A DNA stretch of 63,499 nucleotides from Candidatus Campbellbacteria bacterium (GCA_028817035.1 JAPPQH010000005.1:1-63499); one strand, 5' to 3'. Counted from the first letter of the stretch, positions 13,161 to 36,021 are shown. Numbers and translations are program-made. The notes: a model not told the origin generated them from the sequence alone.

Positions 13161-13295
13161 ATTGAATAACGGTTGAGCGGAACAAAAGAAAACACAAATT
13201 ATTATTTGAGCTCTTTAAGACTGGTTGCATTTTGTATTGAACAAAAATATGTTAAAGATCTTCCCTGCTCTCCTACAAAGAAAGCAAGGACTTTC

Positions 13296-13324
13296 ATTGT
13301 ATCACTTCATCCATAAGTATGCAA
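13296..13324 (-). promoter_or_regulatory. Candidate 16S promoter
   Basis: TTGCAT (13319-13324), 17-nt spacer, TACAAT (13296-13301), upstream of the leader half of the processing stem. Confidence 0.55.
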
Positions 13325-13345
13325 CCCTATGATATGGGATATCTT

Positions 13346-14085: not shown

Positions 14086-14128
14086 CACCCAGAAATCATT
14101 ATGGAAGATGATTTCTGGGTGCTTTTTT
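14086..14128 (+). terminator. Intrinsic terminator of the Cys-rich protein gene
   Basis: 14-bp stem CACCCAGAAATCAT / ATGATTTCTGGGTG followed by CTTTTTT. Confidence 0.8.
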
Positions 14129-14148
14129 CCCCAACTCTGCCTCCAACT

Positions 14149-14236
14149 CCGCGACCCTGCGAGCAAAACCAAGCGAGTGGCGGAGCCACGAGCGATAATG
14201 AATAATGAATAAGGAGGGGCTCGCGGAGCGAGCCCC
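14149..14236 (+). repeat. GC-rich interspersed repeat, copy R2
   Basis: CCTGCGAGCAAAACCAAGCGAGTGGCGGAGCCACGAGCGATAATGAATAATGAATAAGG, then a GGGGCTCGC-GGA-GCGAGCCCC hairpin. Confidence 0.75.
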
Positions 14237-14278
14237 GGGGGGTTGACAAATCTTGCGACTTGGTATACCATATATATT

Positions 14279-14390
14279 GAGGGTCGGAGAGTTCTCCAAC
14301 CTTTCGGGATGGGGGACTAAAAATCCCGTTAAAAGTCCCCTAGCGGGTGTGTGGAGACTAGCAACCTCTCCACCACCCGCTTAATCTTTT
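14279..14390 (+). ncRNA. Unassigned small structured RNA of about 110 nt with a predicted pseudoknot
   Basis: Promoter TTGACA (14243-14248), 17-nt spacer, TACCAT (14266-14271). Closing helices GGGU/ACCC and GGAGAG/CUCUCC. The loop of hairpin CGGGA/UCCCG (GGGGACU, 14312-14318) pairs with AGUCCCC (14334-14340). 3' CUUUUUA. Confidence 0.5.
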
Positions 14391-17467: not shown

Positions 17468-17474
17468 GGGATCG

Positions 17475-34254: not shown

Positions 34255-34308
34255 ATTGGTTTGAAAATCAAATTTTATTTGTTATCATTTGTAATAAATA
34301 CACATTAT

Positions 34309-34947
34309 ATGTTACACAAAATACATAATTATATCAACACCGATATTTCGTTAAATCATAAATTTTTCAAAAACAAGGGTGCCGTTCGTGTTGCCCGCGC
34401 TCTCTTGGGCAAGGCAATCATAATTCACAGGTTGGAGGGTGTGAGTCCAATTGGAAAGACCGAATACGACCTTGCCGAGCTTGCGAGGCAAGTCAAGCGA
34501 GTGGCGGAGCCGCGAGCGATAATAAATAAGGTAGCAATAATAACAGAAACAGAGGCATATACACAAAAGGATGAGGCATCGCATTCTTTTCGTGGAAAAA
34601 CTGAAAGAAACAAAAGCATGTTTCTCAGAGCTGGCTATTCATATGTATATCTCATATATGGCGTCCATCACTGCCTTAATATAGTAGCCGAGAAAGAAGG
34701 GGTCGGATCTGCCGTTTTGATAAGAGGGGTGATTCTGAAAGAAGGAGAAAAAGAAAGGAAAATAGCAGGACCTGGCAGGGTCTGTAAGGAACTTAAAATC
34801 AGCAGAAAACACGATGGAATTGATTTGCTTGATATACAAAGCCCTATATTTATAGCAGATGTTGGAATATCAGCGAAAAATATCAAAAGATCGGAAAGAA
34901 TCGGCATCTCAAAAGGAAAAGAGAAGAAATGGAGATTCATCGCCTAA
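34309..34947 (+). CDS. mpg: DNA-3-methyladenine glycosylase (MPG/AAG family) carrying an in-frame repeat insertion
   Basis: VARALLGK, ITETEAY, ASHSFRG, GYSYVYLIYGVHHCLNIV motifs. Residues LAELARQVKRVAEPRAIINK are encoded by repeat copy R3. Confidence 0.8.
   Translation: MLHKIHNYINTDISLNHKFFKNKGAVRVARALLGKAIIIHRLEGVSPIGKTEYDLAELARQVKRVAEPRAIINKVAIITETEAYTQKDEASHSFRGKTERNKSMFLRAGYSYVYLIYGVHHCLNIVAEKEGVGSAVLIRGVILKEGEKERKIAGPGRVCKELKISRKHDGIDLLDIQSPIFIADVGISAKNIKRSERIGISKGKEKKWRFIA
34472..34531 (+). repeat. GC-rich interspersed repeat, copy R3, 60 bp, inside the mpg CDS
   Basis: Near-identical to 1-60 of the window: TTGCCGAGCTTGCGAGGCAAGTCAAGCGAGTGGCGGAGCCGCGAGCGATAATAAATAAG. Confidence 0.85.
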
Positions 34948-35010
34948 GGGTTGATAATAGTGGGATAATAGGGGGTTGACAGATGGTTGGCTTGGGTGTA
35001 AGATACTAAA

Positions 35011-35395
35011 CAGATGGGGATTGGAAATCGCCCAAAAATGCGATTCTCCAACAAACCCAACCGATCTCTAAACTCCAAATACAACCAGTTGCTCTGAAGG
35101 GCGGTGTTTATGTTGTATTTGTCTCAGTAGAACTGAAGGCTTGTCGTTTACAGCGGCAACCTTCGGTAAATTAGCGACAGCCCTTAGTGGTTGTTTCTTG
35201 AGGTCCCCAGTAAGCAAAACTTCTGGGTAGGAATGCAGTTAAATCCAAGACTCTACTGAGGCTGAACGATGGAGAAAAGTTGAAAATCCCAACACGGTCG
35301 CAGGAGGACTGGGATATCACAATTTCTTCAAAGGACAGTGAAACTGCAGGCAGCGCGCCAATAACACTTTGTGTTAGGTGCGCTGCTTTTATTTT
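35011..35395 (+). ncRNA. Unassigned structured RNA of about 385 nt
   Basis: Promoter TTGACA (34976-34981), 17-nt spacer, TAAGAT (34999-35004). Long-range pairings 35077-35086/35111-35120 and 35123-35131/35252-35260. Terminator hairpin 35350-35386 plus a T run. Only short spurious ORFs. Confidence 0.55.
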
Positions 35396-35433
35396 TATTA
35401 TGCGAAAATGGGGGTGCGGTGAGCAAGTGGAAA

Positions 35434-35469
35434 CAAGCAAAACACCCGCGGGGGCGGGTGTTTTGCTTG
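35434..35469. other. Perfect 16-bp GC-rich hairpin
   Basis: CAAGCAAAACACCCGC-GGGG-GCGGGTGTTTTGCTTG. It is followed by repeat-like GTGGAGCCACGC / GCGGAGCCGCGC segments and a T run at about 35510. Confidence 0.6.
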
Positions 35470-35532
35470 CGGGGTGGAGCCACGCATCTGTGCGGGGCGG
35501 AGCCGCGCACTTTTTTCCATCTTTTAGATGTT

Positions 35533-36021
35533 TTATTGTGGGCAGGCGGTTAGGTTTGTTGTGGCAAACCTGTACTTTCTGCCTATTCTCTGCTGATCTA
35601 TCGGTATGATACCAGATATTTCAGTGTATTCTCTTGATGTGCCGAGAGAATCGGTGCACCACCAAGTTGGATTTTCTCCTTCAAGTTCAAAGAGGGCGAC
35701 CCATTCGTTTTGTGTGGAGTTGCAGACGATTTTGTCGTCTTTGTTTCCTGTTCTTTTCTGGACTAAGTCCAGAGCTTCTTTAATGGTTTCGCTTGTCTCT
35801 TCACTTAATGAACCTCTGTTTCTGCCGTCTTCTACCACATTGCAAAAGTTTGTGTAGTTACCGTTTTCTGACAAGTATGCGACTGATGTGTCGCGGATGC
35901 TTGAGAGTTCTATTTTTGCTACTGATTGATTTGCGACTATCCTTTCGGGACTTGTCGGCAAAAGCAACCAGATGATGAAAAGTAGAACGAGGACAATAAC
36001 AAGCAACAAAACTTTTTTCAT
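35533..36021 (-). CDS. Pilin-domain-like protein lacking a prepilin cleavage motif
   Basis: N-terminal TM but no G/FTLIE. The C-terminal part resembles the adjacent pilin (FCN..., VCNSTQNEWVALFELEGENPTWWCTDS versus ILCASNKDAWVAAFRLED...NWYCVDS). Confidence 0.55.
   Translation of the reverse strand: MKKVLLLVIVLVLLFIIWLLLPTSPERIVANQSVAKIELSSIRDTSVAYLSENGNYTNFCNVVEDGRNRGSLSEETSETIKEALDLVQKRTGNKDDKIVCNSTQNEWVALFELEGENPTWWCTDSLGTSREYTEISGIIPIDQQRIGRKYRFATTNLTACPQ

Follow-up and report, generated by a model that had tools for sequence, protein, structure and literature searches.

A gene for a non-coding RNA under strong selective constraint lies on the plus strand in the gap between mpg and a type IV pilus operon of a Paceibacteria genome. 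The gene is probably transcribed independently, and its product is probably a highly structured RNA of a new family that acts through its fold. This reading draws on the predicted transcription signals and fold, and on comparison with one sister lineage. The original prediction, which had proposed an RNA of about 385 nt delimited by a promoter and a terminator, is supported.

The locus was studied within a stretch of 63,499 nt of genomic DNA (the window), of which a Logan contig (L015) is an identical copy. The genome that contains the window (G000) comprises 566 kb in 17 contigs and is 97% complete. Titles of the nearest relatives of its PilC protein place it in the Patescibacteria, class Paceibacteria (Parcubacteria).

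Locus organization

The gap between mpg and the pilus operon measures 585 bp and holds a promoter, an ORF-poor stretch, and a bipartite hairpin followed by a U-rich tail. The GC content of the RNA region is 43-54%, against 23-28% in ordinary nearby spacers and 39% genome-wide, and on a crude ORF-based map of the genome only the 16S gene is a longer GC-rich stretch without ORFs. The genome has one copy of the locus. The short overlapping ORFs of the gap are the only ones present, and none has a Pfam match. The features of the locus are as follows, with identities referring to the sister-lineage contig L026 described below.

34261-34947, plus strand: mpg (Pur_DNA_glyco), stop at 34947
34971-35004, plus strand: promoter found by consensus scan, with a G run, -35 TTGACA (34976-34981), a 17-nt spacer and -10 TAAGAT (34999-35004)
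35012-35349, plus strand: RNA body of ~338 nt with its putative 5' end at AGAUGGGG, 93.7% identical to L026
35015-35059, plus strand: predicted 5' hairpin of UGGG/CCCA, UUGGA/UCCAA and AAUCGC/GCGAUU (base-pair probabilities 0.94-0.99)
35076-35121, plus strand: predicted hairpin H2, a 10-bp stem CAAAUACAAC/GUUGUAUUUG whose apical stem is UUGCUC-UGAA-GGGCGG, with probability 0.99 for the two lineages alike
35123-35131, plus strand: CUCAGUAGA, pairing with UCUACUGAG (35252-35260) in a predicted 9-bp long-range helix of the single-sequence minimum free energy fold
35132-35167, plus strand: predicted hairpin H3, ACUGAAGG/CCUUCGGU plus UUGUCGUU/AGCGGCAA, with two compensatory double changes
35176-35227, plus strand: predicted hairpins H4 (GACAGCC/GGUUGUU) and H5 (CCCAG..CUGGG) (probabilities 0.85-1.0)
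35234-35348, plus strand: predicted 3' domain, a long irregular hairpin closed by UGCAGUU/AACUGCA, the most conserved part
35350-35399, plus strand: bipartite intrinsic terminator from the predicted fold, with its hairpin at 35350-35386 and a U-rich tail
35434-35469, no strand assigned: perfect 16-bp palindromic hairpin, a putative bidirectional terminator outside the RNA
35489-35516, plus strand: second terminator from the terminator scan, TGTGCGGGGCGGAGCCGCGCA plus T6
35533-36021, minus strand: last gene of the type IV pilus operon, pilin-like, convergent on the RNA unit

Five further ORF-free gaps of 420-760 nt with 45-50% GC appear on the same crude map (G000:C12:16080-16502, C3:8872-9297, C8:10459-10909, C12:6755-7517 and C12:17463-17890), and might hold other unassigned RNAs or repeats.

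Conservation in a sister lineage

The comparison is provided by L026, a 1540-nt contig from JGI metagenome 3300007112. Its mpg protein is 82% identical to that of the window over the part aligned by BLASTP, the next best homologues being ~53% identical, and it carries the RNA directly after mpg, as the window does. The pilin-like neighbour has a single homologue among 5.8 billion proteins, on contig L027 from the same sample as L026, and gene order at the locus is the same in the sister lineage (L026 and L027). On L027, pilC (1469-2671) was called as two ORFs (68 and 314 aa), reflecting a frameshift or an assembly error.

Over the RNA body the two lineages are 93.7% identical, with 22 substitutions, 17 of them transitions. 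For comparison, identity to L026 is 83.6% across the mpg coding sequence, and only 57.7% (n = 260) remains at four-fold degenerate sites pooled from mpg, the two pilin genes and pilC. Second codon positions of the neighbouring genes are 84-95% identical, and the RNA body evolves at the level of the second positions of PilC. Recent transfer of the RNA segment alone is contradicted by the divergent flanks on the same contig.

The lineages are also separated by indels: 7 nt inserted in the loop of a hairpin, and deletions of 3 nt (apical loop) and 1 nt. These break every reading frame and so exclude coding on either strand. The only small ORF, 19 codons from an ATG at 35039, has undergone three changes, all three non-synonymous by manual translation. 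A protein-coding gene was accordingly rejected, given these frame-breaking indels and short overlapping ORFs that lack Pfam matches.

So that the test would not be circular, the placement of the substitutions on the structure was assessed with a fold for which only the window sequence was used. Twelve of the 22 substitutions are at paired positions of this fold and 10 at unpaired ones, so loops and junctions are as constrained as stems. Of 110 predicted pairs, 100 are unchanged in L026, five carry one-sided changes, two have compensatory changes and three are broken, compared with 7.9 +/- 2.1 broken pairs when the substitutions are placed at random (permutation P = 0.013). Of the three "broken" pairs, two sit in a helix that moves by one register and retains five pairs. 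Only on the plus strand are the five one-sided changes compatible with wobble pairing, and this, together with the many G.U pairs and the folding z-scores given below, favours the plus strand. Covariation is thin, being judged from two independent sequences, which provide two double changes and the permutation P of 0.013. The comparative alignment proposed with the original prediction shows strong purifying selection together with helix-preserving changes.

Promoter and transcript boundaries

The near-consensus promoter that had been predicted, TTGACA-17-TAAGAT at 34976-35004, is present. It matches the consensus at 10 of 12 positions in the consensus scan, with GGGGG directly 5' of the -35 hexamer. 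L026 has the same two hexamers and the same G run, but only ~47% identity in the 17-nt spacer. Conservation with L026 restarts exactly at AGAUGGGG (35012), 7-8 nt past the -10 hexamer, which places the likely start site at ~35012. Taking sequence and conservation boundaries together, transcription would begin there from a strong sigma-70-type promoter and stop at the intrinsic terminator at 35350-35399, yielding a transcript of ~340 nt, or ~385 nt including the terminator.

The original prediction also held that a unit at 14279 is driven from the same GGGGGTTGACA context. The context is indeed shared, but it is a general strong-promoter architecture here: the genome has 85 near-consensus promoters in 566 kb, ~9 of them with a G run and several of them repeated cassettes, and these drive unrelated transcripts, mRNAs included. 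One 29-nt cassette, TTGACAAATCTTGCGACTTGGTATACCAT, is identical at window 14243-14271 and at G000:C7:5803 (minus strand), at two unrelated GC-rich transcripts; no gap in the genome is richer in GC than that at 14086-14389 (52%). The promoters of RNase P RNA (G000:C4:37199-37245) and of 16S rRNA (window 13290-13335) have ATAGGG(GG) directly 5' of the -35 hexamer, as here, and the motif "ATAGGGGG" is common to all three. The link is weak because ATAGGG is common genome-wide (291 observed against ~238 expected).

Predicted fold

The plus-strand fold of 35010-35395 has a predicted free energy of -136.5 kcal/mol (z = -6.5 against dinucleotide shuffles), compared with z = -3.7 for the minus strand of the same interval. 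When the terminator is left out, the body gives z = -4.1, and the sister-lineage body z = -5.2. About 64% of the RNA bases are paired in the predicted fold.

In the 5' hairpin, three substitutions in L026 shift the middle helix by one register and five pairs are kept. H2 differs by G35104 to A, which converts a U.G pair into U-A. The stem of this hairpin contains a complementarity in the original prediction, CAAATACAAC with GTTGTATTTG, which is present although it had been numbered one base off; it spans 35076-35085 and 35112-35121. A further claimed complementarity, CUGAAGG with CCUUCGG, was likewise found in the sequence. Both compensatory double changes are in H3, where in L026 A35137-U35162 is replaced by G-C and G35143-C35157 by A-U; the loop of this hairpin has the 7-nt insertion in L026. 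H4 and H5 are possibly enclosed by a helix of GAUCUC (35063-35068) with GAGGUC (35200-35205). C35181 to U and A35201 to G, each on one side of a pair, leave these pairs intact, but would disrupt an alternative fold that is predicted from L026 by itself.

The 3' domain has purine-rich internal loops (AA/GA, GA/AA and AGU/CAA) that are invariant. Across 35219-35306 and 35318-35355 there are no substitutions and just one 1-nt deletion. Within the domain the apical loop alone varies, being GCAGGAG in the window and the GNRA loop GAAA in L026. The AGGAGG loop at 35302-35307, which is Shine-Dalgarno-like and the only one of its kind, is lost in the sister lineage.

The complementarity that had been reported between CTCAGTAGA (35123-35131) and TCTACTGAG (35252-35260) is exact. 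The helix it would form, CUCAGUAGA/UCUACUGAG, is invariant in both lineages, with an estimated ~0.2 such helices expected by chance, and it crosses other predicted helices. Among these are GAUCUC/GAGGUC and UGCAGUU/AACUGCA, both of which agree with the one-sided changes. The three long-range helices are mutually exclusive unless pseudoknotted, and CUCAGUAGA/UCUACUGAG may be an alternative pairing, a pseudoknot or a chance match.

Terminators and the second hairpin block

The bipartite hairpin with a U run had been correctly described. It is formed by GCAGCGCGCC (35350-35359) pairing with GGTGCGCTGC (35377-35386) around an inner AACAC/GTGTT stem, and TTTTATTTTTATT follows. In L026 its place is taken by an unrelated hairpin, GGCACGC-CAUAU-GGCGUGC; one terminator hairpin has been swapped for another, and structure is kept while sequence is not.

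Beyond the terminator, the original prediction noted a second GC-rich hairpin block. The 16-bp hairpin at its core exists (35434-35469), but it is not part of a conserved unit: it is not conserved in L027, and the terminators of the sister lineage differ. The only piece of the block (35400-35520) that is kept in L027 is the terminator at 35489-35516. Near-identical copies of the CAAAACACCCGC-N4-GCGGGTGTTTTG hairpin, with A and T runs on either side, occur at window 35434-35469, C7:68896-68929 and C3:8887-8920, and this hairpin family probably consists of bidirectional terminators that were copied between loci. The copy in the gap is probably a bidirectional terminator that also ends the convergent pilus operon. 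We read the whole block as a termination zone of two convergent units rather than as part of the RNA.

Comparison with known RNA families

Rfam 15 at gathering thresholds detected nothing in the region. At E <= 10, with the body searched in both lineages, the only matches were terminator look-alikes in 35345-35526 and chance matches to miRNA and lncRNA families; the body thus has no hit to any known family in either lineage. The statement that the RNA is neither tmRNA nor RNase P RNA is borne out, since the respective covariance models are silent here and both genes occur elsewhere in the genome. For tmRNA, ARAGORN found none in the window, there is no tRNA-like domain, and RF00023 matched nothing in the region; the genome's own ssrA is at C17:13213-13554 (142 bits), next to smpB. 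For RNase P RNA, RF00010 and RF00011 had no match at E <= 10 and no P4 or core element was seen; rnpB is at C4:36861-37198 (136 bits). What the RNA has in common with these two is its size range, a GGGG-rich 5' end and a promoter like that of stable RNAs. Beside normal tRNAs in the window, ARAGORN called a tRNA-His with anticodon ATG at 17474-17559, with an unusual anticodon position (31) and an Rfam tRNA score of 48 bits.

An AGGUC...GGAAUGCAG string in the RNA resembles helix 8 of SRP RNA. However, RF00169 and RF01854 had no match in the region or the genome, and the SRP reading was excluded because searches of the genome and the class turned up neither of the partner proteins Ffh and FtsY. 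No SRP RNA, small or large, was found in the genome or in 30-40 relatives. Searches of the genome for the SRP54 GTPase domain and for the M domain of Ffh gave no match, and their controls always responded. The M domain was likewise not found in 61 genomes sampled across class Paceibacteria, and the GTPase-domain search gave only weak partial matches in 30 relatives, two of them marginally at the Pfam cut-off. From these searches, the SRP pathway appears to be missing from this genome and its class-level relatives. A literature search found no paper stating SRP loss in this class, and nothing useful on structured RNAs of the Candidate Phyla Radiation (CPR).

Long stand-alone RNAs such as 6S/Ms1, CsrB and CrcZ act by binding proteins, and 6S RNA is a rod of ~185 nt with paired 5' and 3' ends and a large central bubble. 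The RNA described here is similarly long, stand-alone and abundant-looking, and has several GGA motifs and an A/C-rich stretch; it differs in that CsrA and Hfq were not found and in lacking a 6S-type rod with a central bubble. A 6S RNA was rejected for want of an RF00013 match and because the predicted fold has several domains, its 5' hairpin is local and its ends are unpaired; 6S RNA was undetectable anywhere in the genome. A sponge of the CsrB/Rsm type was rejected because CsrA (PF02599) was not found and an rsmX-like match is terminator noise (17.8 bits, against a gathering threshold of 56). Hfq, ProQ and CsrA were all sought in the genome and none was found.

The closest general likeness is to raiA motif RNA, HEARO, OLE, ROOL and GOLLD, which are also long, elaborately folded, independently transcribed and GC-rich enough to stand out in an AT-rich genome, with loops conserved along with stems. 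ROOL, GOLLD and OLE are reported to assemble into defined complexes. In Rfam 15 the present RNA matches none of the five in sequence or structure, and it is smaller (~340 nt) than OLE, ROOL and GOLLD. Unlike that group it comes from a single genus, by way of two sequences, and not from a wide clade.

Distribution

BLAST of the RNA against 40 relatives found no match. Two covariance models were built, of the 3' domain (R1) and of the middle domain (R2). R1 had no match among the family's 11 other genomes, among 150 genomes from the order or at 80 Paceibacteria pilC loci, and none with filters off in syntenic regions downstream of pilC and mpg; R2 had none in 39 relatives. The two best matches were dismissed. 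One, to R1 (20.9 bits, genome G038), is a chance match inside an ORF; the other, to R2 (24.8 bits, genome G022), reads in the sequence as a terminator hairpin, after which come a stretch resembling a promoter and what seems to be the beginning of a tRNA gene. A metagenome scan with the 19-mer GGGTAGGAATGCAGTTAAA returned 11 loci, mostly of one unrelated coding-like context and none with the RNA. Viral scans with 17-mers gave chance matches only, and phage and plasmid searches gave no match.

Relatives in the family have PilC proteins that are just 37-44% identical, which puts the genus on a long lone branch, and sequence-based detection of a fast-evolving RNA is weak outside this genus. As judged by these searches, the known range of the RNA family is two lineages of this Paceibacteria genus. 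So narrow a distribution would be unusual for an essential ribonucleoprotein RNA.

Relation to the RNA of the cca-xth gap

At least nine other families of the order have a 260-450-nt gap after cca with a TGTGGATAA DnaA box and a TTTACA promoter on the strand opposite cca. The RNA of that gap is similar to the present one in several respects: both are of similar size, occur in Paceibacteria, have their own promoter and terminator, neighbour a base-excision-repair gene (mpg here, xth there) and are absent from Rfam. Here cca and xth share 4 nt (G000:C2:103-2402), and in the other genomes of the family that were examined the ORF after cca touches or overlaps it, or else a small ORF on the plus strand comes within ~85 nt. 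With no sizeable ORF-free gap after cca, this genome lacks the cca-xth RNA at its usual site.

The present RNA is nevertheless probably not a member of that family. It lies between mpg and the pilus operon, and its promoter has TTGACA with a G run where that of the cca-xth RNA has TTTACA with a DnaA box. The RNA promoter has no DnaA box, and promoters of the DnaA-box/TTTACA type are absent from the whole genome. R1 and R2 with filters off had no match in cca-xth gaps. Local alignment to ten cca-xth gap RNAs gave z of -0.8 to 3.0, compared with up to z = 10 among that family's own members. Relocation combined with extreme divergence is unlikely, and no observation favours it.

Interpretation and alternatives

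The RNA would act by way of its three-dimensional fold, as a protein-binding or ribonucleoprotein RNA and possibly as a catalytic one. That nearly every position is under purifying selection, paired or unpaired, argues for fold-based action and against an antisense seed. The same conclusion is suggested by the lack of a standout antisense target, the longest perfect complement elsewhere in the genome being 14 nt, and by the failure to find the classical sRNA chaperones. The neighbours, mpg and the pilus operon, give no functional hint. A bolder version is in our estimate a long shot: the RNA would found a new and highly constrained class of ribonucleoprotein or catalytic RNAs, specific to this long-branch genus, and may have replaced the DnaA-box cca-xth RNA, which other families of the order have and which this family lacks at its usual site.

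Of the other explanations, a trans-acting regulatory RNA that works by base-pairing is unlikely. A stand-alone architecture with its own promoter and terminator is typical of small regulatory RNAs, and the predicted fold leaves several conserved stretches unpaired, with the C/A-rich linker at 35047-35075 and the junction GGUAGGAAUGCAGUUAAAUCC as candidate pairing segments. However, an RNA of 340 nt with ~64% of its bases paired and uniform constraint is unlike RNAs of the seed type, and the 14-nt complement is at about the chance level. Neither Hfq nor ProQ was found, and the sole Shine-Dalgarno-like loop, AGGAGG at 35302-35307, is the one lost in the sister lineage. We consider it still less probable, and a poor prospect, that the RNA is a divergent or relocated housekeeping RNA, either an RNA polymerase-binding RNA like 6S/Ms1 or a homologue of the DnaA-box-driven cca-xth RNA that has moved. 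Such an origin would account for a genome in which 6S RNA is undetectable and the cca-xth RNA is gone from its usual place while an RNA similar in size stands here. Against it, RF00013 and all other Rfam models are silent and the ends of the RNA do not form the 6S-type rod with its central bubble; as to the cca-xth RNA, the unfiltered R1 and R2 searches, the alignment z-scores and the missing DnaA-box promoter all point away from homology.

An effect in cis on the neighbours, either as a processed 3' extension of mpg or as a convergent transcript that interferes with the pilus operon ending at 35533, is very improbable. The terminator scan found nothing between the mpg stop (34947) and the RNA unit, the unit converges on the pilin-like gene with stacked terminators between them, and the sister lineage has the same gene order, all of which would suit action in cis. 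However, the unit has its own conserved consensus promoter, and interference does not need 94% conservation over 340 nt with helix-preserving changes. The spacer toward the pilus operon, moreover, is not conserved in L027. The chance that the region has no function at all, being a GC-rich spacer that arose by chance, a decayed gene or the remnant of a mobile element, is very slight indeed. The genome does contain many GC-rich hairpin repeats and duplicated promoter cassettes, but an RNA at 93.7% identity where neutral sites stand at 58% argues against this. The locus is also single-copy, phage, plasmid and viral searches were without a match, and the ORFs lack Pfam matches and are broken in every frame by indels.

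The favoured reading, then, is of an independently transcribed RNA that would work through its fold. It is a new family of a known general kind, the orphan structured non-coding RNAs of bacteria. Its stand-alone value is limited by its being known from two sequences of an uncultured organism. CPR/Patescibacteria have the smallest free-standing bacterial genomes, and in so reduced a genome several hundred bases are spent on this one structured RNA. That it is conserved like the non-synonymous sites of the most conserved neighbouring proteins, in a genome of 566 kb, argues for an important role.
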